From the IMG/VR virus record IMGVR_UViG_2925891887_000002: a stretch of 58,711 nucleotides of DNA. One strand, given 5' to 3'. The DNA comes from a virus (taxonomy: Duplodnaviria > Heunggongvirae > Uroviricota > Caudoviricetes). Position numbers and translations under genes: made by a program. Under the pieces are notes generated by a model. It worked only from the letters and a program-made list of their open reading frames with translations. It did not search any database and was not told the DNA's origin. Shown in pieces: positions 9,966 through 48,742 of the stretch (the stretch's first letter is position 1; each line of letters begins with the position of its first letter).

Positions 9966-10294
9966 CAGTTCACCACCTGTTCAAACTCTGCGCTGAACTC
10001 AACACGCAACATACTGACCCGCGACGACCATTTTGCGCAGGTCACCTTTATCTGCCGCCACTCATAAGGCGGCGTCCACAGAAAGGATTTCCAGCCCCCG
10101 TGCTCTTCCAGAAACGACTCCAGTACCGTGGCCTCCTCACGGGGGACAGAAAGCGTCACGCTGTACGTTTTCAGGTTGGCATTCAGCCCGGCAGGCGCTC
10201 GCTGAGAATAGCCATCACCAAAGCGCACCTTTCTTACAGAAGGGACCGAAGCCACATCCATACCGGGTTTCACTTTCCAGCGGAAGGTCTTCAT
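9965..10294 (-). CDS. M: Tail tip protein M
   Basis: 109 aa, position and size as lambda M. Confidence 0.9.
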   Translation of the reverse strand: MKTFRWKVKPGMDVASVPSVRKVRFGDGYSQRAPAGLNANLKTYSVTLSVPREEATVLESFLEEHGGWKSFLWTPPYEWRQIKVTCAKWSSRVSMLRVEFSAEFEQVVN

Positions 10295-12852
10295 CGTCCA
10301 CCTCCGGAGAACAGGCCACCATCACGCATCTGTGTCTGAATTTCATCACGGGCACCCTTGCGGGCCATGTCATACACCGCCTTCAGAGCAGCCGGACCTA
10401 TCTGCCCGTTCGTGCCGTCGTTGTTAATCACCACATGGTTATTCTGCTCAAACGTCCCGGACGCCTGCGACCGGCTGTCTGCCATGCTGCCCGGTGTACC
10501 GACATAACCGCCGGTGGCATAGCCGCGCATCAGCCGGTAAAGATTCCCCACGCCAATCCGGCTGGTTGCCTCCTTCGTGAAGACAAATTCACCACGGTGA
10601 ACAATCCCCGCTGGCTCATATTTGCCGCCGGTTCCCGTAAATCCTCCGGTTGCAAAATGGAATTTCGCCGCAGCGGCCTGAATGGCTGTACCGCCTGACG
10701 CGGATGCGCCGCCACCAACAGCCCCGCCAATGGCGCTGCCGATACTCCCGACAATCCCCACCATTGCCTGCTTAAGCAGAATTTCTGTCATCATGGACAG
10801 CACGGAACGGGTGAAGCTGCGCCAGTTCTGCTCACTGCCGGTCAGCATCGCCGCCATATTCTGTGCAATACCATCAAAGGTCTGCGTGGCTGCACTTTTT
10901 ACCTGCGACATACTGTCCGTGGCGCTCTCTTCCCACTCACTCCAGCCGGACTTCAGGCCTGCCATCCAGCTCCCGCGAAGCTGGTCTTCAGCCGCCCAGG
11001 TCTTTTTCTGCTCTGACATGACGTTATTCAGCGCCAGCGGATTATCGCCATACTGTTCCTTCAGGCGCTGTTCCGTGGCTTCCCGTTCTGCCTGCCGGTC
11101 AGTCAGCCCCCGGCTTTTCGCATCAATGGCGGCCCGTTTTGCCCGTTGCTGCTGTGCGAATTTATCCGCCTGCTGCGCCAGCGCGTTCAGGCGCTCCTGA
11201 TACGTAACCTTGTCGCCAAGTGCAGCCAGCTGGCGTTTGTACTCCAGCGTCTCATCTTTATGCGCCAGCAGGGATTTCTCCTGTGCAGACAGCTGGCGAC
11301 GTTGCGCCGCCTCCTCCAGTACCGCGAACTGACTCTCCGCCTTCCACAAATCCCGGCGCTGCTGGCTGATTTTCTCATTTGCTCCGGCATGCTTCTCCAG
11401 CGTCCGGAGTTCTGCCTGAAGCGTCAGCAGGGCAGCATGAGCACTGTCTTCCTGACGATCGCCCGCAGACACCTTCACGCCGGACTGTTTCGGCTTTTTC
11501 AGCGTCGCTTCATAATCCTTTTTCGCCGCCGCCATCAGCGTGTTGTAATCCGCCTGCAGGATTTTCCCGTCTTTCAGTGCCTTGTTCAGTTCTTCCTGAC
11601 GGGCGGTATATTTCTCCAGCGGCGTCTGCAGCCGTTCGTAAGCCTTCTGCGCCTCTTCGGTATATTTCAGCCGTGACGCTTCGGTATCGCTCTGCTGCTG
11701 CGCATTTTTGTCCTGTTGACTCTGCTGCTCAGCCTTCTTTCGGGCGACTTCAAGCGCAAGACGGGCCTTTTCACGATCATCCCAGTAACGCGCCCGCGCT
11801 TCATCGTTAACAAAATAATCATCCTTGCGCAGATTCCAGATATCGTCCGCTTTCTTAAACGCGGCCTCTGCCTTAATCAGCATCTCCTGCGCGGTATCAG
11901 GACGACCAATATCCAGCACCGCATCCCACATGGATTTGAATGCCCGTGCTGTCCTGTCTGCCCAGGTTTCCAGCGTGCCCATGTTCTCTTTCAAGCGTCG
12001 GGTCTGGTCATCAAACCCTTTCGTTGCGGCCTCGTTCGCCGCCTGCAATGCCCCGGCTTCATCGCCGGAACGCTGCAACTGAGCAACATACGCAATCTGC
12101 TCCGCCGTCACGTTATGGAACTGGCGTGCCATCGCCGTCAGCCCCGACGTCGGGTCTGTGGTCAGCTTCCCGAAGGCTTCAGCGACCTTGTCCACCTCCA
12201 CGCCGGATGCAGAGGAGAAACGCGCCACACTCTGGCTGATGGACGCAATCTGAGCCTCACCGCTTACCCCCGCCTTAACCAGTGCGCTGAGTGACTCGCT
12301 GGTCTGGTTAAACGTCAGCCCTGCCGCCTGCCCGGCTCTGGACAGGACCAGCATACGATCTGCCGTCAGTCCCGCCTGATTGCCGGAAAGGACCAGCGTT
12401 TTGTTGAAATCGGACAGGGTTGAGTTGCCCTGATACCAGGCATACGCCAGCGCTCCGGTCGCCACCGCCAGCGAGGTAGCCCCCACCATCGGCAGGGTGA
12501 TCGCACCGGCAAGCCCCCGGAACATGGGGATCATCCCGCCGAAGGAGTCCTTCACCTGACCCCCCTGTTGCAGCAGGATCAGCCACGGACTTTGCCCGCC
12601 TGCAAGCTGCGTGGCCACGTCAGTGAACTGCGCAGGCAGCATACGCATGGCGGCTTTATACTGCCCGACGGAAATTCCCGCTTTCTGTGCAGCCAGCGCC
12701 TGCCGGTTCATCGACTGTTCAACGACTGCCGCTGTTTTTTTCGCATCACTTTCCGTACCGGAAAAATGACGCCTGACTCTGGCCATCTGCTCGTCAAATC
12801 TGGCCGCATCCAGACTCAAATCAACGACCAGATCGCCTACCGGTTCAGCCAT
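10291..12852 (-). CDS. H: Tail tape measure protein H
   Basis: 853 aa, same length as lambda H. Confidence 0.95.
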   Translation of the reverse strand: MAEPVGDLVVDLSLDAARFDEQMARVRRHFSGTESDAKKTAAVVEQSMNRQALAAQKAGISVGQYKAAMRMLPAQFTDVATQLAGGQSPWLILLQQGGQVKDSFGGMIPMFRGLAGAITLPMVGATSLAVATGALAYAWYQGNSTLSDFNKTLVLSGNQAGLTADRMLVLSRAGQAAGLTFNQTSESLSALVKAGVSGEAQIASISQSVARFSSASGVEVDKVAEAFGKLTTDPTSGLTAMARQFHNVTAEQIAYVAQLQRSGDEAGALQAANEAATKGFDDQTRRLKENMGTLETWADRTARAFKSMWDAVLDIGRPDTAQEMLIKAEAAFKKADDIWNLRKDDYFVNDEARARYWDDREKARLALEVARKKAEQQSQQDKNAQQQSDTEASRLKYTEEAQKAYERLQTPLEKYTARQEELNKALKDGKILQADYNTLMAAAKKDYEATLKKPKQSGVKVSAGDRQEDSAHAALLTLQAELRTLEKHAGANEKISQQRRDLWKAESQFAVLEEAAQRRQLSAQEKSLLAHKDETLEYKRQLAALGDKVTYQERLNALAQQADKFAQQQRAKRAAIDAKSRGLTDRQAEREATEQRLKEQYGDNPLALNNVMSEQKKTWAAEDQLRGSWMAGLKSGWSEWEESATDSMSQVKSAATQTFDGIAQNMAAMLTGSEQNWRSFTRSVLSMMTEILLKQAMVGIVGSIGSAIGGAVGGGASASGGTAIQAAAAKFHFATGGFTGTGGKYEPAGIVHRGEFVFTKEATSRIGVGNLYRLMRGYATGGYVGTPGSMADSRSQASGTFEQNNHVVINNDGTNGQIGPAALKAVYDMARKGARDEIQTQMRDGGLFSGGGR

Positions 12853-16230: not shown

Positions 16231-16754
<524 letters not shown>

Positions 16755-16755
16755 G

Positions 16756-18535
<1,780 letters not shown>

Positions 18536-19328: not shown

Positions 19329-20252
19329 TCGCCCTCCTGAGAGACGGGATTTACGTGCATCCAGTGCATCACGCATGACGGTGATCGCATCGGTACTGTT
19401 CACAAGTTCATCAGCCAGTCCGGCATCAATGGCCTCCTGACCGCTGTACACTGCAGCCTCGGTATCCAGCACAGCCTGCACGGACAGGCCGGTATATGCC
19501 GACACCTTCTGTGCAAACATCCGGCGGGTTGCATCCATCCGGGACTGCAGTGTTTCCCGGACATCATCCGGTAGATGGCTGTAGGGGTTGCCATCCACCT
19601 TATGGCTGCCGCTGTAAATCAGCGTGATTTCCACGCCCTGTTTCTCCAGCGCAGCACCGTAATTACTGTGAGCCATCATGACGCCGATGGAGCCTGTCCG
19701 GGCGGTCTGCGTGACCAGACGCCGGGAGGCGGCGCTGGCAAGCAGCTGACCTGCACTGCAGTTCATGTCGTTGGCCAGCGCCCATACCGGTTTTATGTCT
19801 CGCACACGGGCGATGATGTCAGCACAGTCAAATGCTCCCGCCACCATCCCGCCCGGTGTGTCCATATCCAGCAGAATGCCGTCCACAATCGGATCGCTGG
19901 CAGCCTGTTGCAGACGGGCGATAATGCCGTTGTAACCGGTCATCCCCGAATACGGCTGCAGCGCCCGCGTCCGGCTGACCAGCGTGCCGGACACCGGCAG
20001 CACGGCGATGCCGTTCATGACCTGATAACTGCGGGCCTGTCGTGGTCCGTCATCATCAACGGATAACGCCAGCGCCGCGGGTGCCTCTCCGGCAGTCAGG
20101 CTGTCGCCGGACACCGCATCCGCCAGGCGGCTGATCCCAAGCTGGCCTGCAAGCGCACAAAAGAAAACCCGCGCATAGGCGGGTTCAAGCATCAGCGGCT
20201 CATTAAAGGCCATACTGGCAATATGCGGGAGATTACGCAGCTCTGCTGTCAC
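18933..20252 (-). CDS. C: Capsid assembly protease C
   Basis: 439 aa from GTG (VTAELRNLPHIASMAF), lambda C match. Confidence 0.9.
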   Translation of the reverse strand: MTAELRNLPHIASMAFNEPLMLEPAYARVFFCALAGQLGISRLADAVSGDSLTAGEAPAALALSVDDDGPRQARSYQVMNGIAVLPVSGTLVSRTRALQPYSGMTGYNGIIARLQQAASDPIVDGILLDMDTPGGMVAGAFDCADIIARVRDIKPVWALANDMNCSAGQLLASAASRRLVTQTARTGSIGVMMAHSNYGAALEKQGVEITLIYSGSHKVDGNPYSHLPDDVRETLQSRMDATRRMFAQKVSAYTGLSVQAVLDTEAAVYSGQEAIDAGLADELVNSTDAITVMRDALDARKSRLSGGRMTKETQSTTVSATASQADVTGVVQATEGENASAAQPDVNAQITAAVAAENSRIMGILNCEEAHGREEQACVLAETPGMTVETARRILAAAPQSAQARSDTALDRLMQGAPAPLAAGNPASDAVNDLLNTPV

Positions 20253-21012
20253 TCTTCTCCTCCTCTGTTGATTGTCGCAGCCCGGATTCAAATGCTGCAG
20301 CCGCCCAGGCGGGCGGTTTAAGACCGGCTGCACGGCGCTCCATCGTTTCACGGACCTGCTGGGCAAAAATTTCCTGATAGTCGTCACCGCGTTTTGCGCA
20401 CTCTTTCTCGTAGGTACTCAGTCCGGCTTCTATCAGCATCACCGCTTCCTGAACTTCTTTCAGACCATCGATGGCCATACGACCGGAGCCTATCCAGTCG
20501 CAGTTCCCCCAGGCACTGCGGGCTTCCTGAAAACTGAAGCGCGCTTTTGAAGGTAACGTCACCACGCGGCGAACGATGGCCTCTTCCAGCCAGCACAGAA
20601 ACATCTGGCTCGCCTGACGGGATGCGACGAATTTTCGCCGCCCCATAAAGTACGCCCACGACTCGTTCGCACTGGCCCGTGCCGTGGAGTAGCTCATCTG
20701 GGCGTAATTCCGGGAAAGCTGCTCATACGAGACACCCAGCCCGGCAGCAATATACCGCAACAGTGACTGCTCAAACACGGAGTAGCCGTTATCCGTGTCC
20801 TGAGCCGTCTGCAGGTTCAGTGAGTCCCCCGGCATCAGGTGCGGCACTTTTGCGCCTCCCAGCCGGACCGGTGCTGCGGCGTAATACGCGGCAATTTCAC
20901 CAATCCAGCCAGTCAGCCTTTCCCGCTGCTCCTGACTGTTCGCGCCCAGAATAAAATCCATCGCTGACTGCGTATCCAGCTCACTCTCAATGGTGGCGGC
21001 ATACATCGCCTT
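20233..21012 (-). pseudogene. B: Portal protein B, C-terminal fragment
   Basis: MYAATIESELDTQSAMDF...EEEKSDSRAA matches the lambda B C-terminal half; homology stops at the satellite junction. Confidence 0.9.
21001..21012. other. Satellite att core copy, left junction (ATACATCGCCTT)
   Basis: Direct repeat of 31400..31411 with one mismatch. Confidence 0.65.
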
Positions 21013-21086
21013 TATGAAAAGACAGGAAAAAATAAAATTTAAAAACAGTACATTACGAATGCTCAGACCTATCGTTTAAAGGAGTC

Positions 21087-21107
21087 GCAATACACACTGC
21101 AATACAC
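21087..21107 (+). repeat. Two GCAATACAC direct repeats, putative integrase arm-type sites (left end)
   Basis: Same 9-mer occurs three times at the int-proximal end. Confidence 0.5.
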
Positions 21108-21194
21108 GATTATTTATAAGATGAGCGGCATCCGTCATAAAGCTGGTGGATGCTTTTTCTATGCATATATGCACAGTTTTAGTGGGCGTTAATG

Positions 21195-21218
21195 TCGATA
21201 TAGGGATCCCCATATCGA
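21195..21218. repeat. Nested palindrome TCGATATAGGGATCCCCATATCGA
   Basis: 7-bp inverted arms flanking a GGATCC core. Confidence 0.4.
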
Positions 21219-21450
21219 GATTGGATACCTGGCTTTTTTCCGGTTAACCTTTAATCAGGCTGGTGGGCTTTACCTGTTTTGTATGAGTGGTCATCATGAC
21301 CATGTCATAACAAAAACCCCATATTCGTGGTTTTTCTGTGTCGGGCTATTCTGTCGTTGCTGTGCTGATTTGGCTGGTGGGCTGAATCATCATTACGGCG
21401 ATGCAGCTATGTAGACGTTCCGGCCTCCTCAAATTGAGGATTGTGGAAGA

Positions 21451-21810
21451 ATCAATGGGTTAGTCTTACTTTCCCGACATCCCCCAATGGGGGTTTTCGA
21501 AACAATCAATAGCTTAGGCTTACTTCCCCGATTTCCTGCATTGCAGGTTTTCGAAATAATCAATGGGTTAGGCCATCGTGCAATTTTGCACTTTGCCAGC
21601 CAGCGCAATGTCGCGTTATCAGTCCTCAGATGTGAGGGATGTAGCCAGCTTTTCCCCCAGTGGGGGATATCCAGCACCGACGGCTTAACTGTGCGTGCCA
21701 GCACAAGGTAGCCTTGAACTACTTACTGCATCCCATCTTACAGGCCGTGCCTTCCTGCTTAACTTTTTGCAATGCAACAAGTCAGCCAGCGCAATTTTGC
21801 GTTATCGGGA
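21451..21810. repeat. Array of 54-bp tandem repeat units and 12 to 14-bp GC-rich palindromes, several followed by T-runs
   Basis: Units at 21451, 21505, 21559; palindromes at 21481, 21535, 21578, 21654, 21790. Confidence 0.7.
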
Positions 21811-21821
21811 ATATCAGCAAG

Positions 21822-22103
21822 TTACCGCCGCAATCGTTCCGGCTTCTTCCACTGGTAAGTATTTTTCGCGCTCTCCCTCCGTTGTTGAGAACGGCGACGA
21901 TATGCCAGCAACTCAAGGACTCTTGTTCGTATGTTGCGCATATCCACGCCGTTAAGCTCAATACCGTCACGGCGCATCACCTCAGCCACTACACGCACAT
22001 AATTATCTGCGGTCACGCTGTCCGGCTGCGTGGCCTGTTCGTCATGCTGCTTGCTGATTCCACAAGCACGGCGGATTAATCGCAGTATTTCGGATTCAGT
22101 CAT
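21822..22103 (-). CDS. Hypothetical protein (satellite)
   Basis: 93-aa ORF just downstream of the terS-like gene, same strand. Confidence 0.4.
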   Translation of the reverse strand: MTESEILRLIRRACGISKQHDEQATQPDSVTADNYVRVVAEVMRRDGIELNGVDMRNIRTRVLELLAYRRRSQQRRESAKNTYQWKKPERLRR

Positions 22104-22114
22104 AGCGTACTACG

Positions 22115-22642
22115 TTACTTATCTTTATTCGGCTGCAACTTATCCGGTACGTTTCCGGCAGTTTCCATCAGATAATCGGACAGCATCAGCGGTATGTTTT
22201 CGTCAAGTTTTGCGCATGCGTTACGGGCTCTGATAACTTCTTTTTTCAGTCCATCCAGCATAGACGGCTTCATGTCGGGAAACTTCCTTGTCATGGCAAG
22301 CGGCAGGCTGTCCATGATTGAAGAAATCTGACTCGCTAGTTTTGAAATCGCGTAGATGCAAAACTTTGTATCAATCACCTCGCCGCGTTCGCGCTCGTTT
22401 TTAAGTTCCTGCGCTTCCGCCTGGGCCGTCATTAATCTGATTCTTACGCGTAAAAGTTCATCATCATCAATCTCGCCTTTGTCGTCTGTAATCTGGTTAA
22501 TTGCATTGCTAACCCGATTGTCTATTACGCTGGCAACATCATAAAACGCCTCGCGGCCTTTACGTTCAACGGGAGTCACTCCCCACTTGTCGAACGCTGT
22601 CGCACTTACACGGCAGCTTTGCGCCATGTTTTTTTTGTTCAT
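22115..22642 (-). CDS. Small terminase (Nu1)-like protein, candidate packaging-redirection factor
   Basis: C-terminal two thirds align with Nu1 at 34333..34878 (RLxxAQAxAQELKN..); N-terminus divergent; start chosen at MNKKNMAQ. Confidence 0.7.
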   Translation of the reverse strand: MNKKNMAQSCRVSATAFDKWGVTPVERKGREAFYDVASVIDNRVSNAINQITDDKGEIDDDELLRVRIRLMTAQAEAQELKNERERGEVIDTKFCIYAISKLASQISSIMDSLPLAMTRKFPDMKPSMLDGLKKEVIRARNACAKLDENIPLMLSDYLMETAGNVPDKLQPNKDK

Positions 22643-22790
22643 CAGGTGCGATTTCATCAATATCCCCACTTAAGTAATGTTTCAGGTTGGTGTATTGGCT
22701 TTATCTTTTCCTTTTTATTCATAGAGATAGAGCGAACAACAAAACCACCACCAGCACCCGAAAAAGGCTCATAAATAGCGAAAACCCGCG

Positions 22791-22802
22791 AGGTCGCCGC
22801 CC
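22791..22802. other. Satellite cosN (12-nt cohesive-end sequence)
   Basis: AGGTCGCCGCCC with lambda-like flanks on the cosQ side, divergent on the cosB side. Confidence 0.8.
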
Positions 22803-22858
22803 CGTAGCCTACCGGATCGCCGGAAAGGACCCGCCAGCCAGAACGGGCCCTAATTTCA

Positions 22859-23263
22859 TCAACCAATCAACTTATAGCGACCATCCCGTGCATTGCGACG
22901 TACACGCTCAATCTTGAGGCATAGCGCCGCATCTGGCTTTTTTGGGACAGGTACGCGGCAATATTCAGAAGATCGAGGAATATTGTTTATCCAGTCGATC
23001 ACTTCACTTAAATACCAGGCCTTACGCCCTTCCGTAACCTGTACGCGTTCGGGGAACTCTCCGCGAGCCTCAAGGTTTAGCAATGTGCGACGGCTAAGGG
23101 TAGTAAGTTCCATCACCTGATTCATATCAACAAGGCGTTCACTTAAACGCATTTTGTCAGCAATAGCCTTTAATTCCTCTACTGCTGGATCCGGATACAT
23201 CATTTCGGCAATTGGCTTAAGGTCATTGTAATGATTCTGCATTGTATCCCCCTTTACACACAA
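22859..23263 (-). CDS. AlpA-like HTH protein with N-terminal extension
   Basis: 134-aa ORF; C-terminal half has an AlpA/excisionase-like motif. Confidence 0.5.
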   Translation of the reverse strand: MCVKGDTMQNHYNDLKPIAEMMYPDPAVEELKAIADKMRLSERLVDMNQVMELTTLSRRTLLNLEARGEFPERVQVTEGRKAWYLSEVIDWINNIPRSSEYCRVPVPKKPDAALCLKIERVRRNARDGRYKLIG

Positions 23264-23595
23264 GCCAGCGGCTGAACAGAAATACCTGAGCCAACAAACG
23301 CGGCAACCTTTGCCGACAGTTCTTTTACAGACTCAGGCCAGTTCAGAGCATCAACATTTAAAACACCTGTCTTATAAACCTGTGCCTGTGTTTTTTTCGC
23401 TGTGTCGATTTGTACAGCGGAAACATAAACCGCTTTACCTACGCTCGAACCATCCCATACCACCAGTGCACCTGTTGCATCTTCCTGCATCAGTGGCGTA
23501 AATGCAGGAATTACCCCTTTATTAGCTGAAAATATCCCCAGCGTAGTCACCAGTGCTTCAGTGCCAGCCATGAGTTCAGTGTAATGAGTAGCCAT
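23254..23595 (-). CDS. Head decoration protein D homologue (satellite)
   Basis: 113 aa; conserved blocks shared with D at 18591..18923 (TPLM..WDG, K(S/T)G..WPE). Confidence 0.7.
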   Translation of the reverse strand: MATHYTELMAGTEALVTTLGIFSANKGVIPAFTPLMQEDATGALVVWDGSSVGKAVYVSAVQIDTAKKTQAQVYKTGVLNVDALNWPESVKELSAKVAAFVGSGISVQPLACV

Positions 23596-23604
23596 TGCTC
23601 CCCC

Positions 23605-24651
23605 TTAGCCAATGCGAACGGTAACAAAACGATTGATGCGGGCCGGTATTGGCTGTGGTGCTGAATGTGTCTGCACATATTCAATAGCCGGATCACCAGG
23701 CACAATATAGTTTTTCGGTGCAAGTTCGGCTTTAGTCAGCCCCATTCGGATTAGCTCCGGATCCTGAATACCGCCATAGGCGACAATCCCCTGAAGAGCC
23801 GTATTGCCAAGCACCATCAAATCAGGATCAAGGAAATGTTTTTCTGTTCCGTCCTCGTCGGTATAACGCCCGCTGTAAACAACAATCGCAACATCGCCCA
23901 TATACCCTTTAAAACTCACCGAATCACCAAGGTCTTTAAGGGCCGTTTCCAGTTCGGAATTAGAACCACGACGGGTATCCAAAGCCTCTTTTATCGCTCT
24001 GAATGAACGGTATTTCTTCCATACATTACCACCCATAATGATGATATTAGTGACGCCCTCACTAAATTCTGCGTAGCTCTCAATATCATCATTTGGATCA
24101 AAAGTTTCTTTATCCTTACCTGACCACTCAGTACCGCCAGACTGAGTGATGATATTTTGTGGTTTTATATTCCAGTCCAGCTCATAACGTTCAATACCAT
24201 CGCCCTCAATGATATTTTTCCCCGTTGTGATTGCCTGAACAGCAAGCCATTCAATACGTGCACGAATAGCTTTAGCCTGATTTACAATCGCCTGTTTAAC
24301 TTTAATATTACGCGCCCCAAAAGCATTGTATTGCTCAGGTGACACACCAGCAGGGCGCACAGCTAACTTATTTGGATCAATGCTGCTTTTCGGCTTCATA
24401 TAACCTGGACGAATTGTTTTTGATTCGTATCCCTCATCTCGTGAAACTTTACTGCCCACCATAGGAGAGCAAAACGCCGCGATCGGGATATTTGGATCGT
24501 CGATCGTATCAAGAATAATGTCTCTCGATTCAAACATTACCGAGCGAGTGAAAAACAAACTGGTAAACAACGCATTTAATTTTTTTTGCACATCTTCAGC
24601 ATTAGCCACCTGCACAAGCTGTGTAGGCGAATATAAATCAACCATACGCAT
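23605..24651 (-). CDS. Major capsid protein E homologue (satellite)
   Basis: Aligns with E along its length (ITQSGGTEWS, DPxDDIE, LDTRRGSNSELETA, AIVVYSG); start chosen at MRMVDLY; ORF extends upstream to 24819. Confidence 0.75.
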   Translation of the reverse strand: MRMVDLYSPTQLVQVANAEDVQKKLNALFTSLFFTRSVMFESRDIILDTIDDPNIPIAAFCSPMVGSKVSRDEGYESKTIRPGYMKPKSSIDPNKLAVRPAGVSPEQYNAFGARNIKVKQAIVNQAKAIRARIEWLAVQAITTGKNIIEGDGIERYELDWNIKPQNIITQSGGTEWSGKDKETFDPNDDIESYAEFSEGVTNIIIMGGNVWKKYRSFRAIKEALDTRRGSNSELETALKDLGDSVSFKGYMGDVAIVVYSGRYTDEDGTEKHFLDPDLMVLGNTALQGIVAYGGIQDPELIRMGLTKAELAPKNYIVPGDPAIEYVQTHSAPQPIPARINRFVTVRIG

Positions 24652-24862
24652 CCTCTTTGCATTCATTAAAAATAATTGTGGATATATGCTATCACCGATA
24701 TTTGTCATGCGAATACATGCAACCGAGTGCAATGTTGTATAAAGTTTTGGGATAACAACTTCAGCGCGGATAATTAGTGTTAATATCTTCACTCCCTTTG
24801 GTCGGGATTTATGTAGCATGCCGGAAAATTTATTTTTTTCCGGCCTTTTTTATTGGCAATAT

Positions 24863-25312
24863 TTAAAACGGAATATCATCTCCCCATTGCTCATTTTCTC
24901 CCACTGGTGGATGGCTTCCTTGCTGATCTGCCTGTTGTTTTGCTCTGTTCAGTGCGTCAGTAGCCTGACCCTGTTGACCTTTTTTGCCGCCCGGTCGCAC
25001 CGTTCGCGCACTGATTACGCTGTCTGCGATAACCTGCCAGCCCTGCCGCGTTTCACCGTTCTGGCCTGTCCACTGTCTTACCTGCATGTTACCCGCCACG
25101 CTCACCAGTTCGCCTTTGTGGTGTTTTGCCAGTGCGTCGGCCTGTCTGCCAAACGCCAGGACGGATAACCACATCGTCGCCGTTCCGTCATCTGCCTGGC
25201 TGCACGGAAGGGGGACCGCCATACTAGCCATCGTCATTTGTGTACCCTTGCTGGTGGTCTTTAACTGCGGGTCAGCCACCAGCCGCCCGTAAGCCGCTAT
25301 CTGTGCTGTCAT
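24863..25312 (-). CDS. ssb: Single-stranded DNA-binding protein
   Basis: 149 aa, OB-fold-like, ends with the SSB acidic tip DDIPF. Confidence 0.7.
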   Translation of the reverse strand: MTAQIAAYGRLVADPQLKTTSKGTQMTMASMAVPLPCSQADDGTATMWLSVLAFGRQADALAKHHKGELVSVAGNMQVRQWTGQNGETRQGWQVIADSVISARTVRPGGKKGQQGQATDALNRAKQQADQQGSHPPVGENEQWGDDIPF

Positions 25313-25560
25313 GCTGTCTGCTCTCCAGTTTTAACGTTGATGGTTGTCACCTGTTCCGCTTCGGCAATCTCCCGTTCTGTCAGCGTGGCAAAGTTTGCCG
25401 CCGTCGTGGTCATGAATGCGCTTATCAGTTCGGGGTGTGCTTTCGCGTATCCTTCCCCAGCGTGGCGGTCTATCGTTCTGATTGCCACCTTTAAGGCGTG
25501 CTCTGTCATGTCTAACGCTTTATATTTTGGCGCTGTCTTATCTCTGGTTTTTCTGGTCAT
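25309..25560 (-). CDS. Hypothetical protein (satellite)
   Basis: 83-aa ORF between ori and ssb. Confidence 0.4.
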   Translation of the reverse strand: MTRKTRDKTAPKYKALDMTEHALKVAIRTIDRHAGEGYAKAHPELISAFMTTTAANFATLTEREIAEAEQVTTINVKTGEQTA

Positions 25561-25765
25561 TCCTCACTGCTCCCCACTTTTACTACCCACTTTTTGAAAT
25601 TACCCAACGTCTCCCCACTTCTTTTTTTTGTGATTCTAACGTGATGTTTTTCAATGTGTTTTTTATTCCCCACTTTTTGGGGTATATACAGGTGGGAAAG
25701 TGGGGAATCACGTTTCAATTTTGTTAAATTCCCCACACTCCCCACTTTTACTACCCACTTTTTAC
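25561..25765. repeat. Putative satellite replication origin with CCCCACT iterons
   Basis: At least eight CCCCACT(T) motifs in both orientations plus AT-rich stretches, directly 3' of the rep gene. Confidence 0.6.
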
Positions 25766-27177
25766 AGTGGGCGCACGTCATCACCGTCAATAGCAATAAC
25801 GCCATCACCTTCCAGCTTGTACAGCCAGCGCCGGAAGTGTTTCATCTCATACCCCAGCTTTTTCATATCATCGCGCAACAACGGAATAGTGCATTTATCT
25901 CCGCGCTGTGTGCGTGAACGGATACAGCCCCATAGCGCGGCATGATTCTCCGTCTTGTTCCCGGCTTCCTCGATGCGCTCCAGTTCAACGGGTGGGCGCG
26001 GCTTATCCACAACAACCAGCGACGTGATTAACTCCCCGTCAGTGTCGGTAAAAAGCTCCACCACACGTAAATCGTATGCGGCCTCTTTCAGTTCCTCCGC
26101 GTCCTTCATTTTTGTGCAGGAGATAACCAGGGCTTCACTGTCTGCACCTTCACGGCGAATACGGTATTCAGCGTCCAGAGATGCACGAAATGCACTGGAA
26201 CCACGCGCCCCCTTTGTTTCATCCTTGCCGGAATGGTGAACCACCAGCACCGTGGCCCCTGTGCGGCGTTTCAGTTCGTCACATCCACGGATAAACGCCC
26301 CCATATCCCGCGCGTCATTTTCATCATTACCGCCAAAGCAACGCGCCAGCGTATCAAGAATAATCATGCGTACCGGTTTACCCGTTTCCCGTTCAACCTG
26401 GCGGGAAGCGATGACCATTTCATCAACATCAAGCGGGACTGCCGGAAAAATCGGGCGGTTTACCAGGTACAGATTTTCCACCCGTTCATCATTAACGATT
26501 TCCCATGCCTTGATACGGCGGGGGACACCAATGCCACCTTCACCGACAACATACATCACCGAACCATGCGCCACCCTGCGGCCTCCCCAGTGACGGCCAG
26601 TGGCAACATGACACGCCCAGGAACACGCGAGGAACGATTTATAGGAACCGCTCGCGCCGTATGTGCTGCACAATGAATTAGCCGGAATCACGCCCTTAAC
26701 GACATAATCAAGCTGTGTGTCGTACCCTGCAGATCCAATGCTCATTGGTAGCGTGGTTTTTCGCTGGCTGTATTGCTCGTCAGTAAGTATTTCCCCGCGC
26801 TCTGCCTGTTCGCGGATCCGTTGCAGGTAGTCGTGCCAGTTCTCCAGCTTCTGGCTGTGCATTCCATCAGGGTAATAATTCGCATCCCGTACACCTGCCG
26901 CCGCCAGCTTTTGCCCGATAGCATTAATATTTGACGGCTTGATGTGGCCTGCCTTGTACAGCCGGACACAATAGCGACCATCGTCGATAATTTTCAGGTC
27001 TGCCAGTTCGTCAAGCTGGCTGTCTCCCAGCCATACAGGCGGGACGTTATCACCAGCAAGTCGCCCGTCCTGTTCCTGCCACTGTTTCGCGTGCGCCCAG
27101 GCATCACTACCCGCAAAAATAATGACTTCGGTCATTTTGTCGTGTGGCTGTTTTTTTAAGTTCGGTGCCAGTTTCAT
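25762..27177 (-). CDS. Replication initiator ATPase (RepA/AAA_25-like helicase with primase-like N-terminus)
   Basis: 471 aa; Walker A GASGSYKS; ILDTLARCF and LVVHHSGK motifs. Confidence 0.7.
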   Translation of the reverse strand: MKLAPNLKKQPHDKMTEVIIFAGSDAWAHAKQWQEQDGRLAGDNVPPVWLGDSQLDELADLKIIDDGRYCVRLYKAGHIKPSNINAIGQKLAAAGVRDANYYPDGMHSQKLENWHDYLQRIREQAERGEILTDEQYSQRKTTLPMSIGSAGYDTQLDYVVKGVIPANSLCSTYGASGSYKSFLACSWACHVATGRHWGGRRVAHGSVMYVVGEGGIGVPRRIKAWEIVNDERVENLYLVNRPIFPAVPLDVDEMVIASRQVERETGKPVRMIILDTLARCFGGNDENDARDMGAFIRGCDELKRRTGATVLVVHHSGKDETKGARGSSAFRASLDAEYRIRREGADSEALVISCTKMKDAEELKEAAYDLRVVELFTDTDGELITSLVVVDKPRPPVELERIEEAGNKTENHAALWGCIRSRTQRGDKCTIPLLRDDMKKLGYEMKHFRRWLYKLEGDGVIAIDGDDVRPL

Positions 27178-27473
27178 TTTTTGCCCCTGAATGCGTTAAT
27201 CATGTTTTTCATTTTCTGAATATTTGCCCGTGCCTTTGCGTTGCTGGTGGGCTGTTTGCGTGGTGTGGCCTGTATCAGTGAAAAATCACGCCGGAACTGA
27301 TAAGCAGGCATCACGCAGTCATAGCCGTACCCATCACGGCGGTAAGTAACGCACCGCCCCGCCACGCTTTTAATCGTTACCGTGCCACCGTAGTTATCCC
27401 GGAAAATATCGCCGGGGCGGATTTCAGGCCGAGGGAGACCACTGGCAGTAAAGCCAGAATTTTTCTGTTTCAT
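27174..27473 (-). CDS. Hypothetical protein
   Basis: 99-aa ORF. Confidence 0.4.
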   Translation of the reverse strand: MKQKNSGFTASGLPRPEIRPGDIFRDNYGGTVTIKSVAGRCVTYRRDGYGYDCVMPAYQFRRDFSLIQATPRKQPTSNAKARANIQKMKNMINAFRGKK

Positions 27474-27479
27474 GTTTTT

Positions 27480-27698
27480 TTACTCCAGAGGCAGATTTTT
27501 AGCGGCGAGTTCAATATCAGATGTCAGAGAAACCTGTGTATTTGCCAGGTCTAACAACAAAGAAATAAGAATTTCCTCTCTGCTATCGGATTCATCGGTG
27601 CTAAGGCTGTTCATCCACATATTGACGACTTCCCTGATTTTTTTCGCAGAGTGCAGGGCTTCAAATGCCAGGTCTTCAATATCATGTTTATTTCGCAT
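27480..27698 (-). CDS. Hypothetical small protein
   Basis: ORF from internal Met MRNKHDIEDL. Confidence 0.3.
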   Translation of the reverse strand: MRNKHDIEDLAFEALHSAKKIREVVNMWMNSLSTDESDSREEILISLLLDLANTQVSLTSDIELAAKNLPLE

Positions 27699-27900
27699 AA
27701 TCGCCCCCGCGTAACTGGTCTGCACTAACACCCGATTTAGTGAGCATTTCAGAAAATCCCGCAAGAGTGCTGATAAATTCGTTTTCCATTAAACGGCACT
27801 GGCATTTAACCCGGCCTTTTTCCAGATACACCAGTACGCGCCACGTATAATCTGACGGCACATTCAGCACTACAGATAAGTGCGCTTCATTATTATTCAT
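27688..27900 (-). CDS. Hypothetical small protein
   Basis: 70-aa ORF. Confidence 0.35.
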   Translation of the reverse strand: MNNNEAHLSVVLNVPSDYTWRVLVYLEKGRVKCQCRLMENEFISTLAGFSEMLTKSGVSADQLRGGDYAK

Positions 27901-28129
27901 GGCTCACCACCTCCATATCAGCCATGATAATTTTGCTGGCCTCATTCAGTGCCATATCAGCACTAAGTTGCATTACAGCCAGTGAATGAGGAACGAAAGC
28001 CCCGGCATATTCTGTTTCACTGGTAGCGTGCTTATGCGCCCTGTCCGCGATAACAGAAATATCAATCAGCGCATCAATCAGTGTTTTGATTGCTTCGGCG
28101 GCTGCGTCCGGACGGGTGTTATTGCACAT
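27893..28129 (-). CDS. Hypothetical small protein
   Basis: 78-aa ORF. Confidence 0.35.
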   Translation of the reverse strand: MCNNTRPDAAAEAIKTLIDALIDISVIADRAHKHATSETEYAGAFVPHSLAVMQLSADMALNEASKIIMADMEVVSHE

Positions 28130-28325
28130 GGTGCACCCCCTGACGAATACGGGCGGCGAATACCATCACGCAGCCAGCCGGTGATTGCTGACGGGCTTCC
28201 TGTTCGCTGGTGGCCTCAATGGTAATCACGCGCGGTTGTGCCGTACTCAGGGCGATAAAACGCCAGATGTATTTATTCAGGTTGTGCGAGCCCCGCCCTT
28301 GCGGGTGTGTGGTATGATTTCTCAT
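28119..28325 (-). CDS. Hypothetical small protein, first gene of the leftward satellite operon
   Basis: 68-aa tail of a longer spurious ORF, starting at ATG 28323..28325 next to the operator region. Confidence 0.35.
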   Translation of the reverse strand: MRNHTTHPQGRGSHNLNKYIWRFIALSTAQPRVITIEATSEQEARQQSPAGCVMVFAARIRQGVHHVQ

Positions 28326-28422
28326 AGCTACCTCGATACTGTTGCTATCGTTGGTGGTTAGAAGCCCGGTTAGTGTTAGCGCACTGCCGGGTTTCGTCGT
28401 TTCTGCACCTTGCACCAACAAG

Positions 28423-28474
28423 GTGTTGAACACCAATTTAAACCCAGGTGTTGAACACGTCAAGTGTTGAACAC
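28423..28474. promoter_or_regulatory. Three direct repeats of GTGTTGAACAC in a divergent promoter region (putative operators)
   Basis: Repeats at 28423, 28448 and 28464 between divergent small genes. Confidence 0.55.
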
Positions 28475-28524
28475 TTGTTTTTTTTCCTGCATACTGCATT
28501 TGTTTTTTGTGAGGGGTACACAAC

Positions 28525-28704
28525 ATGGCGACAAAAGCAGTAAACGCAAAATCACAAACAGTTGCGGCAAGGGTTCCGCATGAAGTTATGAACAATGTTG
28601 AGGCGGTAAAAATGCCTGGTGAAAGTACAGGGCAGTTTGTAACAGCAGCATTAAAGCGAGAAGTTGAATACCGCCAGCGACGCAAGGCTAAAGAGCAAGA
28701 ATAA
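28525..28704 (+). CDS. Small putative DNA-binding regulator
   Basis: 59-aa ORF (not in the track) with GAGGGG Shine-Dalgarno 8 nt upstream. Confidence 0.45.
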   Translation: MATKAVNAKSQTVAARVPHEVMNNVEAVKMPGESTGQFVTAALKREVEYRQRRKAKEQE

Positions 28705-28761
28705 TCACTATCAGCGCTGTGGTGTGAGGTACTCCGGCGCATTGCTTTACAGGTCGGCACT

Positions 28762-28971
28762 ATGAGCAAAAAATACCTATCCACTGAAGAGATTTTCGCA
28801 GAACAACGAAGATTGCTTTTACAGAGCATTGTTGCACGCCAGAAAGAAAAGGCACACGCTAAACAAATGCCACCAAATACAGAACCAGCGCCTACAAAAT
28901 TTGCGCTTGATGAGTTTCTCAATAAACAGCCCCGGGTAATGAAAGCTAACAGGAACCGCCCACCAGGCTGA
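28762..28971 (+). CDS. Hypothetical small protein
   Basis: 69-aa ORF downstream of the regulator. Confidence 0.4.
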   Translation: MSKKYLSTEEIFAEQRRLLLQSIVARQKEKAHAKQMPPNTEPAPTKFALDEFLNKQPRVMKANRNRPPG

Positions 28972-29067
28972 TCACATTGCCCACCAGCCGCAAATGTGGC
29001 ATTGTTGGTGATGCTTTTGTTTTCCCTTGTTCCCACTGGCGACCCTTTTGCGGTCGCCTTTGTTTTG

Positions 29068-29646
29068 TCACTGAATGCGGTTACCAAAGTAAAACTCAGG
29101 CTGATATTCACGTATCAGCGTTTTTTCTTCTTCCTCCAGCTCACGCTTTTTGCGCTTACATGCCTGTAGCTCCCTCCCCTTCTCGCTGGCACTTATTTGA
29201 TATTGCTCTTTACGGCGGGAAAAATCCTGTAATGCACCCCACGGGATACCATAAGCCCCCGTTTTTCTGATACCCGGTATCACATTTCTGAATACCCAGT
29301 TACTGAAACGATGAGCAAATGTGCCAGGCGTCGTTGCTTTGCGGCTGCGGGCTATTAGTTTGTAGAAACCTGACTCAGAGATAATTCTCATATTCTGATT
29401 TCCTCCTGGGGTGTAAGTTAAATTTACTCCCTTTTCATCATCATCAAGCATCTGCAACGCCGTACGCGAATTGGTTAGTTCCAGCACAGCACAAACATCT
29501 TTTGCAACAAACCACGGATCGCCGTTCAGATACACCACACGAACGTTCACACTATCAAAGCGCAGAACGACGAGATCACGAATATCGCAGAATTTTTTCA
29601 CTGGACGAGCGTACCCCTTGCCCGTCACGGCAATATTTTTATTCAT
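29068..29646 (-). CDS. Bro-N domain protein (antirepressor-like)
   Basis: 192 aa; N-terminal motif VRVVYLNGDPWFVAKDV typical of Bro-N. Confidence 0.65.
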   Translation of the reverse strand: MNKNIAVTGKGYARPVKKFCDIRDLVVLRFDSVNVRVVYLNGDPWFVAKDVCAVLELTNSRTALQMLDDDEKGVNLTYTPGGNQNMRIISESGFYKLIARSRKATTPGTFAHRFSNWVFRNVIPGIRKTGAYGIPWGALQDFSRRKEQYQISASEKGRELQACKRKKRELEEEEKTLIREYQPEFYFGNRIQ

Positions 29647-29663
29647 CGCGTTTTTACCTTATA

Positions 29664-29690
29664 GACAAAAAACCCCTCGTGATGAGGGGC
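29664..29690 (-). terminator. Rho-independent terminator downstream of alpA
   Basis: CCCCTC..GAGGGG hairpin followed by a T-run on the minus strand. Confidence 0.55.
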
Positions 29691-29702
29691 ATTATTTACT
29701 GG

Positions 29703-29960
29703 TTATTGCTGTTTTGTTTTTCCAGGTTTCCATCCAGGATGCCACTCACCACGGATCCATGCCTGAACCTCTGAAAGTCGATACCCTGCAGCACGTTCAC
29801 CGATCTTGATACGTCGCGGGAATTTACCTGCCTGCTCCATTTTCCAGCGTGTTGAGTTTGCCAGCGTGGTAAGTGCTATGCACTCTTTTTCACGAATGAA
29901 CCGATCAATGTCCTTCATTGTGCGCAAATCGTTTTCATCAACAAGAGAATAAATTGCCAT
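29703..29960 (-). CDS. alpA: AlpA-family regulator / excisionase
   Basis: 85 aa, AlpA motif, directly downstream of int. Confidence 0.75.
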   Translation of the reverse strand: MAIYSLVDENDLRTMKDIDRFIREKECIALTTLANSTRWKMEQAGKFPRRIKIGERAAGYRLSEVQAWIRGEWHPGWKPGKTKQQ

Positions 29961-29961
29961 A

Positions 29962-31203
29962 TCACACCACCTCTTTATTAAGCTCGATAACGTTGTTGTT
30001 AAATCCTGCTATCGTATTAAGGTAATTAACCCATATATTAAGCACCTCAAGTTTTTTCTTTATATGCCTGCTTTTATTGTAAACACCAGCAACCCCTTTC
30101 ACTTTATGACCTAAAAGAAGTTCGACAATATAAGGATCCGCCCCCATATCATTAAGCGTAGTGGAAAATGTGCGCCTGAAATCATGTATGCACCACAAGC
30201 CATTAGTATCATGACCAAGACGCCTGCATATTCTGTTTGCAGCCCCTGTTATTGTCGCCCTTTGCAAAGCACAACCGACAACATAACCGCGATTTTTTGT
30301 TTCTGCGTAAAGATTAACGATCCATTGTTTTATTCCGTCAGGAACAGGCCTTACTATAGCCTCCTTGTTTTTGCTGTGCTCTTTTGGGACTGTCCATACC
30401 CAGTTTTTTAAATCCCATTCGTCCCAGGTGGATAGCCTCGCCTCCTGCTGTCGGCAACCAAACACCAGGCAGATAACCATTATTCTTCGGTTATATATTG
30501 ATGACAGAGTTAGCAAATTATTACCGTAAGCATAAGACCATACATCAGCGGTTTCATTGATATTAAGAACGCGATCCCTTATACCGGATGAGCGCCCGAC
30601 ATAACTTACGTTAATATCTCCAAAGGGATCGCACGCGATGTATTGCCTGACGCGACAAAAACGCAACGCCTGTTTGATATCAAGAAAAATTGCACCAGAC
30701 ATAACAGGCGCATTTTTTTTGATCCTGTCAAAGACGGTAAGCCATGTGTGTAATTTGCACTGTTCTATAGCCATATCACCGATATAGGGGAAGATATGCT
30801 TTTCAAATCGTTTTATTAAATATTCATGCTCTTTTCTGGCTGTTGTGGCGTGATTGTCGTACCAGTAAAACAGCGCATCCCTTACGGTCACTGGTTGCAT
30901 AGTTTTTTCGGCAGCAAGTTTTATTTGCCTGCGGGGGTCCAGATTTTCAGCCAGCCATTCACGGCACTGATCACGCATGCGCCTGGCCGTTGCAAGAGAC
31001 ATGTCAGGATAGCGACCAAGTGTAAGCCATACCGGAGGGGATTCCCTGCCACCAAGACGATAGTAAAAAACAAAGCTGATCCCCCCAACCATGCTTACAC
31101 GCACAGACAACCCGCGCCCATCCGCTATTGTTTTTTGTTTGTCCTGCCGTTTTCCGACAAGACTCTTTAACAGTTTGTCACTGAGTTTGTTTTCAATAGC
31201 CAT
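29962..31203 (-). CDS. int: Tyrosine integrase (P4/PICI-type)
   Basis: 413 aa; C-terminal HDFRRTF and LLGH..Y catalytic motifs. Confidence 0.85.
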   Translation of the reverse strand: MAIENKLSDKLLKSLVGKRQDKQKTIADGRGLSVRVSMVGGISFVFYYRLGGRESPPVWLTLGRYPDMSLATARRMRDQCREWLAENLDPRRQIKLAAEKTMQPVTVRDALFYWYDNHATTARKEHEYLIKRFEKHIFPYIGDMAIEQCKLHTWLTVFDRIKKNAPVMSGAIFLDIKQALRFCRVRQYIACDPFGDINVSYVGRSSGIRDRVLNINETADVWSYAYGNNLLTLSSIYNRRIMVICLVFGCRQQEARLSTWDEWDLKNWVWTVPKEHSKNKEAIVRPVPDGIKQWIVNLYAETKNRGYVVGCALQRATITGAANRICRRLGHDTNGLWCIHDFRRTFSTTLNDMGADPYIVELLLGHKVKGVAGVYNKSRHIKKKLEVLNIWVNYLNTIAGFNNNVIELNKEVV

Positions 31204-31223
31204 TAAAAGCCCTCAAGAGATTT

Positions 31224-31274
31224 GCAATACACACCCATCCCGATCGCCAATTTGCAATACACATTGCAATACAC
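31224..31274 (+). repeat. Three GCAATACAC direct repeats, putative integrase arm-type sites (int-proximal)
   Basis: Copies at 31224, 31254 and 31266. Confidence 0.5.
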
Positions 31275-31399
31275 AAAACCGCGAAAAACTGGAAGGGTGA
31301 TGAACGGTCATCAAAAGCATGGAAAACGACATTCCAGACGCAGCAAGGGTTTCAGTGGAGTTGGCGAACGATGCGGGCAACTACGGTGAGATGATAGAC

Positions 31400-34332
<2,933 letters not shown>

Positions 34333-34358
<26 letters not shown>

Positions 34359-34878
34359 TCAGCAACCCCGGTATCAGTTCATCCAGCGCGGCTGCTTTGT
34401 TCATGGCTTTGATGATATCCCGTTTCAGGAAATCAACATGTCGGTTTTCCAGTTCCGGAAAACGCCGCTGCACCGACAGGGGGATCCCGTCGAGAATACT
34501 GGCAATTTCACCTGCGATCCGCGACAACACGAAAGTACAGAATGCGGTTTCCACCACTTCAGCGGAGTCTCTGGCATTCTTCAGTTCCTGTGCGTCGGCC
34601 TGCGCACGCGTAAGTCGATGGCGTTCGTACTCAATAGTCCCTGGCTGGAGATCTGCCTCGCTGGCCTGCCGCAGTTCTTCAACCTCCCGGCGCAGCTTTT
34701 CGTTCTCAATTTCAGCATCCCTTTCGGCATACCATTTTATGACGGCGGCAGAGTCATAAAGCGCCTCATTACCCTTGCCACCGCCTCGCAGAACGGGCAT
34801 TCCCTGTTCCTGCCAGTTCTGAATGGTACGGATACTCGCACCGAAAATGTCAGCCAGCTGCTTTTTGTTGACTTCCAT
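34333..34878 (-). CDS. Nu1: Terminase small subunit Nu1
   Basis: 181 aa, lambda Nu1 match. Confidence 0.95.
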
Positions 34879-35055: not shown

Positions 35056-35067
35056 AGGTCGCCGCCC
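35056..35067. other. Prophage cosN (12-nt cohesive end)
   Basis: AGGTCGCCGCCC with flanks matching both lambda ends as recalled. Confidence 0.9.
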
Positions 35068-38561: not shown

Positions 38562-39149
38562 TTACATCATGTCTTTTTCTAAAAAAAATCTTGATGAATA
38601 TTGATGGGGAGGAACACCAAAATACCTTCTGAAAACACTTACAAAATATGACGTGTTTTCATAACCGCATATCTCAGCAACTTTTCCAACAGAATATAAA
38701 TTGTAGCTTAATAATCTTTCCGCCATCACCATTCGCTCTTCAAGAATTAACTTACTAAATGATAAGCCTTCGTGCTTTAATTTTCTTTTTAACAGACTTT
38801 CACTCAGATACAGTCTTGAAGATATATCACAAAGTCTCCATGCTGCAGATATATCCGTGTGAATAATAGCCTTAACTTTACTTCCTAAACTATTAAGACA
38901 TCCAAATAAAAAACTTTGCACTATTTTCTCTGAAGATAAGATAGCAAGACATGCAAGTGATATTTGATTTCTAACAAAATCCACAGTTCTGCCATCACAA
39001 TTCAAGCATGCAATCAAGTTCTTTAACAATGAAAAATCTTCACATTCCACCATCAAGTATGCCGGATAAAACCTTCTTACAGAAAAAGGTGAGAGTGTGT
39101 TGCTTTTAAAGAAATCATTAACTGTTTTTTCTTCAACATCTACGATCAT
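38562..39149 (-). CDS. AraC-family transcriptional regulator
   Basis: 195 aa; C-terminal AraC-type HTH; AT-rich context. Confidence 0.7.
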   Translation of the reverse strand: MIVDVEEKTVNDFFKSNTLSPFSVRRFYPAYLMVECEDFSLLKNLIACLNCDGRTVDFVRNQISLACLAILSSEKIVQSFLFGCLNSLGSKVKAIIHTDISAAWRLCDISSRLYLSESLLKRKLKHEGLSFSKLILEERMVMAERLLSYNLYSVGKVAEICGYENTSYFVSVFRRYFGVPPHQYSSRFFLEKDMM

Positions 39150-39643
39150 TACATGATCTATATTTGATGAAAAAAATCTTTTAAATTGTAATCAATGAGA
39201 ACAGCATTTCCTTTTTTAAACAAAATATCTTCTTTACCAATTCGGACATCAAACGAATTCAACACCAAAATGATAGAACATATGTATGGCATATTATCCA
39301 CCTGATATCATTGGGGTTACACCAGGTAAGTATAGGTGGAAAATCAATATTCGCCAGTTCAACAATAAGGAAAATTTCATTACATCACAAGTATAAAATT
39401 ATGTATTTAACTCACAAAGACAAATTATTAAACCAATCTGTTATATTATATATAGCTGCGTGGAATCATAATATTATATATTTTGACTGGCATGTTTACC
39501 AACTTTAAGTTGCATCTCAATTGTTTCTTCAGCGTAAACAGAGTTTTTATACAAACTGACACTCTGGGTATCATAGTGTAGTTTTTACGATTGTAAATAT
39601 CCTGCATGCAGGAACTCATCCTTTTGGATGATATCGCATACAA

Positions 39644-48466: not shown

Positions 48467-48742
48467 GTGGCTTCTGTTTCTATCAGCTGTCCCTCCTGTT
48501 CAGCTACTGACGGGGTGGTGCGTAACGGCAAAAGCACCGCCGGACATCAGCGCTATCTCTGCTCTCACTGCCGTAAAACATGGCAACTGCAGTTCACTTA
48601 CACCGCTTCTCAACCCGGTACGCACCAGAAAATCATTGATATGGCCATGAATGGCGTTGGATGCCGGGCAACTGCCCGCATTATGGGCGTTGGCCTCAAC
48701 ACGATTTTACGTCACTTAAAAAACTCAGGCCGCAGTCGGTAA
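48467..48742 (+). CDS. insA: IS1 InsA
   Basis: 91 aa, InsA match. Confidence 0.9.

Follow-up and report, generated by a model that had tools for sequence, protein, structure and literature searches.

Helper-embedded phage-inducible chromosomal islands (HE-PICIs) are satellites that reside in the late genes of prophages and were described by Tommasini, Mageeney & Williams (NAR Genom Bioinform 2023; PMC10111431). The founding, experimentally induced member is 11capE (11capE/61icd, Escherichia coli NRG857c), which occupies site E:Phage_cap_E:80. After treatment with mitomycin C, quantitative PCR and deep sequencing showed that this composite of satellite and prophage was excised and then replicated, and that the satellite was subsequently excised with precise restoration of its site; the target gene was restored in 42-98% of the excised composites (PMC10111431). 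A further 491 examples were reported at 14 late-gene sites; five sites, within genes A, B, C and E, account for 97% of them, and B:Phage_portal_2:241, in the portal gene, is a common site (PMC10111431). Here we analysed a 58,711-nt stretch of DNA (IMG/VR virus record IMGVR_UViG_2925891887_000002; hereafter the window) in which a satellite of this kind interrupts the portal gene B of a lambda-like helper prophage. Coordinates are those of the window, and features lie on the minus strand unless stated otherwise.

The insert is 100% identical to positions 76465-86875 of NZ_CP031134.1, from E. coli CFSAN064035, and the window corresponds to 55465-114175 of that record, with matching annotation. 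The lambda-like helper prophage occupies the classical attachment site of lambda, which lies between ybhB and ybhC, and its late genes are on the minus strand. The same element is catalogued as HE-PICI Eco9790.10.B_Phage_portal_2_241 (CP031134.1/86871-76473; helper Eco9790.59.PBP|ybhC; core aaggcgat; Supplementary File 1, PMC10111431), and the catalogue coordinates, CP031134.1 76473-86871, are window positions 21009-31407. The two agree in accession, coordinates, core, ybhC helper, zone order and the doubled TGTATTGC motif described below. Both the phenomenon and the site have been published, as has this copy itself, and no new principle is added here. The original prediction, made from the sequence alone, had placed an integrase-bearing satellite within the portal gene of a lambda-like helper prophage. 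This interpretation is supported by the joined reading frame and by the empty and occupied sites reported below, and the idea itself was already in the literature. Taken together, we consider it very likely that the insert is an HE-PICI of site group B:Phage_portal_2:241 with the excision-gated life cycle proposed below.

The lambda-type portal gene B is broken at positions 21005-21012 and 31404-31411, and a 10,399-bp insert of lower GC content lies between the two ends. The N-terminal fragment (31404..32233; 276 codons, up to ...SAIVKA) matches the Pfam Phage_portal_2 profile at positions 2-237 (E=9e-63) and is annotated 'phage portal protein, missing C-terminus'. The C-terminal fragment (20233..21004; 257 codons, starting MYAATIESELD) matches profile positions 238-354 and is annotated 'missing N-terminus'. 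The two fragments are therefore halves of one Phage_portal_2 domain, split between profile positions 237 and 238. As the DNA stands, the open reading frame (ORF) at 31352..32233 runs through ...NTQLQSAIVKA into 17 unrelated codons inside the insert and ends at a stop at 31352. When the flanks were joined across the core AAGGCGAT, an unbroken portal ORF of 533 aa was obtained, reading ...SAIVKAMYAATIESELD... across the junction, with the restored nucleotide sequence ...GTGAAGGCGATGTATGCC.... The original prediction had stated that the halves of B lie 10.4 kb apart here and are contiguous in lambda, and the in silico joining it proposed as a check rebuilt an intact lambda-type B frame.

The reconstructed 608-nt empty site was 100% identical to the intact portal genes of several other E. 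coli genomes. On these comparisons, the likeness of the split gene to intact portal genes is not a chance resemblance. The GC content was ~0.59 in the flanks and 0.42-0.54 in the insert, with a sharp change at both junctions. No replacement for the missing 257 codons is provided: the N-terminal fragment acquires only the 17 unrelated codons and a stop, and the satellite supplies no C-terminal part. Since attP brings no substitute for these codons, B stays inactive for as long as the satellite is integrated. An attP that lacks replacement target sequence, termed 'regulated gene integrity', is a characteristic of HE-PICIs, as is disruption of a prophage late gene with precise att junctions, which is seen here in the shared core, the 533-aa join and the identical empty site.

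The core AAGGCGAT is the identity block common to attL (31404..31411; context GTGAAGGCGATTTATGtctatc) and attR (21005..21012; context ttttcATAAAGGCGATGTATGCCGCC). The 12-bp imperfect direct repeats that had been predicted to bound the insert were present (ATACATCGCCTT at 21001-21012 and ATAAATCGCCTT at 31400-31411); the two are perfectly identical over an 8-bp block, which reads ATCGCCTT on the plus strand and AAGGCGAT in the direction of the gene. The insertion can thus be written as attP (ttttcATA-AAGGCGAT-TTATGtctatc) recombined with GTG-AAGGCGAT-GTATGCC within gene B, the crossover falling within the 8-bp core and being the work of the satellite's P4-type tyrosine integrase. The reconstructed attP junction of the satellite reads ...ttttcATAAAGGCGATTTATGtctatc.... 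HE-PICIs have a specific doubled motif, tgTGTATTGCantgTGTATTGCa, once in each attP arm, 81±2 nt upstream and 132±2 nt downstream of the centre (PMC10111431). On the reconstructed attP, one doubled TGTATTGC motif was found in the int-proximal arm (31254..31273), starting ~132-134 nt from the core centre (downstream, ~132.5 nt), and one in the distal arm (21087..21106), ending ~78 nt (~77.5) upstream of it. A fifth TGTATTGC half-site lies at 31224-31231. The window holds 11 copies of the TGTATTGC motif against 2.4 expected, and five of these are in the two attP arms.

To place the site in a wider context, 5,426 complete E. coli genomes were compared. With the 608-nt empty-site sequence as query, an uninterrupted portal site was found in 3,117 of them, several at 100% identity, and also in 80 isolated lambdoid phage records. 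Occupied junctions were found in the same genome set for attL (62 genomes) and attR (59 genomes). Both the empty and the occupied sites that the original prediction had asked for therefore exist, the latter in 59-62 genomes with prophages at different chromosomal loci: att-lambda for the present helper, and proP, icd and 'R' in the catalogue (Supplementary File 1, PMC10111431). The same junctions were present in two independent complete genomes, CFSAN064035 and 22AR0322, and about 60 others carry variant satellites. Two other strains have same-site variant satellites with a primase module, in a prophage backbone that is different (DLP12-gene-named). Among deposited phage genomes, no part of the insert was found beyond a 66-80-nt block at cos. 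Collectively, these sequence comparisons indicate that the insert is a separate, mobile element.

The gene content agrees with this assignment. The integrase, AlpA, AAA_25 replication ATPase, SSB, Phage_cap_E, HDPD and Phage_Nu1 genes named in the original prediction all scored above the Pfam curated cut-offs. By Pfam and annotation the gene order is Int, AlpA, Bro-N, Icd-like, DUF4222, RepA helicase, SSB, E, D, AlpA-like, cos and Nu1-like, which is the four-zone order of Gram-negative PICIs (integration, Bro, replication, late). The int, alpA and replication genes are co-oriented with the interrupted gene, on the minus strand like the helper Nu1-A-W-B-C-D-E series, another characteristic of HE-PICIs. 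The only satellite genes on the plus strand are two small divergent ORFs in 28525..28971, encoding a YlcI/YnfO family protein of 59 aa and a hypothetical protein of 69 aa (annotation; phrog_949); all the others run with the helper late operon. In the integration zone, the tyrosine integrase (29962..31203; 413 aa) has P4-type architecture (Pfam Arm-DNA-bind_3, Phage_int_M and Phage_integrase), and its kinship with the integrases of HE-PICIs is seen in 54% full-length identity to the 11capE integrase and in its inclusion in a catalogue built from that clade. It is followed by an AlpA-type excisionase/regulator of 85 aa (29703..29960; Phage_AlpA, E=5e-14) and, tentatively, by a terminator-like hairpin at 29690..29672. 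The Bro zone contains a Bro-N domain protein (29068..29646; Bro-N, E=5e-20), and an Icd-like protein (28119-28325) lies with three small ORFs in 27480..28325 (annotation; phrog_6196 'transcriptional repressor', phrog_5146, phrog_340, phrog_2196). We discounted as spurious a 330-aa ORF at 28119..29111, where the annotation has instead the 68-aa Icd-like protein, and further long overlapping ORFs.

Immunity RNAs of P4 type (C4/isrK) are reported in some HE-PICIs. None was detected here by Rfam, either at gathering thresholds over the whole window or at E≤1 over the insert. A sub-threshold match to the SymR antisense RNA (28326-28398, plus strand; 32.9 bits against a cut-off of 61, E=0.004) lies antisense to and directly upstream of the Icd-like gene, in the zone of immunity RNAs in some PICIs; this match is probably due to chance. 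Terminator-like hairpins in the insert numbered 29 against 11.6 expected. Elsewhere in the window, two Rfam matches exceeded gathering scores: the IS009 small RNA family at 44-242 (minus strand), within the region of the tail-fibre assembly gene, and at 51681-51739 (plus strand) the lambda cIII thermoregulator element, upstream of helper cIII, which fits a close lambda relative.

In the replication zone, a DUF4222 protein (27174..27473; DUF4222, E=7e-24) lies directly upstream of the replication gene and overlaps it, the same position as in relatives. The replication protein itself (25762..27177; 471 aa; AAA_25, E=3e-44) is annotated 'helicase RepA family protein'. The 190-nt gap directly downstream of this gene (25572..25761) contains seven iteron-like AAAGTGGG(G/T) sites, in direct and inverted orientation, and all exact copies of the AAAGTGGG 9-mer in the window fall within it. 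This gap is a putative origin, in keeping with the prediction of a replication ATPase with an iteron origin, and an origin downstream of pri is the position described for Gram-negative PICIs. A hypothetical protein (25309-25560; phrog_1231) and SSB (24863-25312; SSB, E=1e-16) complete this zone (24863..25560). Where the present satellite has a RepA-type (AAA_25) helicase (25762-27177), a DNA primase or DUF5906 gene is found in most same-site relatives. At least 80% of this exact satellite variant was found in only 2 of the 5,426 genomes. The catalogue (Supplementary File 1, PMC10111431) lists four copies of this gene profile, that is, three further elements alike. It looks, from these comparisons, as if the replication module has been swapped between satellites that are otherwise ~96% identical.

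The late zone encodes homologues of head proteins of the helper. A major capsid protein homologous to lambda E (23605..24645; 346 aa; Phage_cap_E, E=5e-41) shows 34% identity to one half of helper E and 51% to the other, and a head decoration protein homologous to lambda D (23254..23595; 113 aa; HDPD, E=4e-15) is 38% identical to helper D. These are followed by a second AlpA-like helix-turn-helix regulator (22859..23242; Phage_AlpA, E=1.5e-8; phrog_2790), the satellite cos, a terminase small subunit (TerS) homologous to Nu1 (22115..22657; 180 aa; 37% identical to helper Nu1; Phage_Nu1 profile positions 80-162 only, phrog_57 over the full length) and, as the last satellite gene, a conserved 93-aa protein (21822..22103; phrog_1561), found in relatives as WP_000140265.1. 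By Pfam and annotation, no portal, large terminase, protease or tail genes are among the satellite genes. As the satellite has cos, TerS and E and D homologues and lacks these other functions, we strongly infer that it depends on a helper.

The cos sites suggest how the satellite may be packaged. The exact lambda cosN 12-mer GGGCGGCGACCT occurs just twice in the window, upstream of the satellite Nu1-like gene (22791-22802) and upstream of helper Nu1 (35056..35067; Nu1 at 34333-34878, A at 32433-34358). The satellite thus has a cos of its own, as had been predicted. The satellite cos (22757..22834) is nearly identical to that of the helper over ~70 nt, across cosQ and cosN, and then diverges on the cosB side. 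The 66-80-nt block centred on it is the only satellite DNA common to isolated phage genomes. When the satellite and helper Nu1 proteins were compared, the N-terminal DNA-binding part was the most divergent and the C-terminal two-thirds were better conserved. Given a common cosQ-cosN, a private cosB and a Nu1 homologue with a diverged N-terminus, satellite TerS may therefore pair with helper gpA in a hybrid terminase that prefers the satellite cos.

The two cos sites are co-oriented on the composite and lie 12.3 kb apart (22791-22802 and 35056-35067). The lambda genome is ~48.5 kb. In an unexcised, replicated composite of ~59 kb, the way round from satellite cos to helper cos would measure ~47 kb, within the range that lambda can package, and such a hybrid molecule would lose most of the satellite together with Nu1, A, W and the first half of B. 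By the packaging limits of lambda, the unexcised composite itself (~59 kb here) should be too large for packaging, as is also noted in PMC10111431.

Compared with 11capE, the present satellite shares int-alpA, a Bro/Icd zone, DUF4222 with a replication gene, SSB, E and D homologues and an AlpA-like regulator. Both also have the same doubled TGTATTGC spacing from attL and are co-oriented with the helper late operon. In contrast, 11capE targets the capsid gene E rather than the portal gene B, has a DNA primase rather than a RepA helicase and has no terS (PMC10111431); it carries a HEPN/DUF262 pair instead. This pair (10237-11953 of the examined NRG857c stretch), likely defence cargo, sits where the present satellite has cos, the Nu1-like gene and phrog_1561, so that the late zone ends in a slot whose cargo varies.

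More distant satellites share fewer of these features. Satellite P4, whose helper is P2, has in common with the present element the P4-type integrase architecture, an AlpA/Vis-like regulator, an Icd-like gene and reliance on helper structural genes. P4 itself integrates at tRNA-Leu, uses the alpha primase-helicase, remodels the P2 capsid through Sid/Psu and has no E, D or Nu1 homologues. Membership of the P4 family was ruled out on gene content. Capsid-forming PICIs (cf-PICIs), as generally understood and as outlined in published abstracts, encode a full head module (HNH, TerS, terminase large subunit (TerL), portal, protease, major capsid and connectors) and take only tails from their helper. 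This class was also ruled out, as the present satellite has only E, D and Nu1 homologues, without portal, TerL or protease. Gram-negative PICIs such as EcCICFT073 and the fis/hpt PICIs share the int-alpA-replication-late order, a size of 10-20 kb, cos packaging by lambdoid helpers and frequently a capsid-E homologue. They differ in integrating into chromosomal genes and in interacting with their helper only in trans. They are also without the doubled TGTATTGC attP motif, and EcCICFT073 lacks terS (PMC10111431).

The following cycle is proposed on the published model and the induction experiment with 11capE. Upon SOS induction, the whole composite would excise from the chromosome and replicate. 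Q-antiterminated late transcription of the helper would then read into int-alpA, and the satellite would excise and restore B. Portal synthesis, and hence the formation of both kinds of particle, would be gated on satellite excision. The free 10.4-kb circle would replicate by means of its own RepA helicase and iteron origin, and would be packaged by the helper large terminase subunit gpA.

This copy of the composite bears damage, and the insert could alternatively be a decaying, immobile remnant, left by a single integration into a since-inactivated prophage, with neither partner functional and gating without a present role. The helper major capsid gene E (region 16231-18535) is split by IS621, a 1,279-bp insertion sequence of the IS110 family (16699..17977; transposase 16805-17785), a second helper disruption unrelated to the first. 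IS1A lies in the helper immunity region (48467-49164), flanked by a hypothetical gene on either side, downstream of the cI-like repressor and gene N, and a helix-turn-helix gene is frameshifted (38562-39292); both are further signs of prophage decay. With capsid gene E broken, the composite is probably defective, the CFSAN064035 helper being predicted to be unable to make virions unaided. The satellite in this strain may be stranded unless its own E homologue substitutes or another helper arrives. The split of E, the IS1A between the immunity genes and N and the frameshifted gene all speak for a remnant, as do the published remarks that many HE-PICI helpers are truncated and their satellites 'potentially abandoned', and the failure to obtain virions even from the model composite (PMC10111431). 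Neither IS621 in helper E nor details of the private cosB/Nu1 pair were found in the accessible parts of that article or its supplements. On the other side, E. coli 22AR0322 carries the same satellite-helper composite, with an identical satellite and E intact, and the two halves of helper E in the window (558 and 468 nt) together equal the intact 1,026-nt gene of that composite. The IS621 insertion is therefore, by this comparison, recent and strain-specific. No satellite ORF is broken, the two att cores are kept together with all four pairs of motif half-sites, and about 60 genomes have the site occupied, in different prophages. The decay thus speaks to the state of this copy and not to the nature of the element, and as an account of the insert we regard the remnant as possible though doubtful. 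That the insert is an ancestral fixed phage module or an artefact of assembly has practically no probability left and can be considered refuted. Nothing was found in its favour, and it is raised here because the original prediction had named an ancestral, non-mobile insert as its refuting case. Against it, the 608-nt empty site has 100% identical matches in other E. coli and is intact in the 80 lambdoid phages, the insert is absent from the phage records searched, the GC content changes sharply at both junctions, and the same junctions recur in two independent complete genomes, with ~60 more holding variant satellites.

The element might also act chiefly as a lock on helper virion production, that is, as interference by gene disruption that benefits host or satellite, rather than as a strategy for transfer. 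B is indeed non-functional during integration, satellites generally lower helper yield, and 'regulated gene integrity' is said to serve the HE-PICI (PMC10111431). However, a full integration/excision module, an own origin, cos and a TerS homologue make sense only with excision and packaging, and the restoration of the target gene in 42-98% of excised 11capE composites (PMC10111431) likewise counts against a mere lock. We consider such a lock unlikely as the main role; it complements the excision-gated cycle more than it competes with it. Some observations do weigh against an HE-PICI with that cycle. No virions or plaques were recovered from 11capE, and to date no HE-PICI has yielded virions (PMC10111431). 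The induction measurements come from 11capE, a different HE-PICI in gene E, and not from this element or from B:241, and a literature search for later experimental work on HE-PICIs returned only citations of the 2023 paper. The disruption of E by IS621, the IS1A in the immunity region and the frameshifted helix-turn-helix gene count on the same side. A sigma-70 promoter scan of the insert gave 12 matches against 14.8 expected from shuffled sequences, which is no enrichment and is silent on satellite transcription. The distal-arm motif ends ~78 nt from the centre of the core, where 81±2 is published, and lies 1-2 nt outside the range, depending on the definition of the centre; this choice of definition is the probable source of the small offset.

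The E, D and Nu1 homologues and the private cosB could, in addition, give the satellite partial autonomy in head assembly, with its own shells built on the helper portal and filled by a hybrid terminase. We think this improbable; published work finds the capsid genes of PICIs dispensable for transfer. If it were true, portal-site HE-PICIs would fall between classical PICIs and capsid-forming PICIs, and in CFSAN064035, where E is destroyed by IS621, any particles formed after induction would need the satellite capsid protein. As for the excision-gated HE-PICI that we favour, a satellite that takes a helper structural gene as its attachment site would gate virion production on its own excision, and would be replicated and transcribed in cis by its helper. 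As a relationship between two parasites, such an arrangement is of interest.

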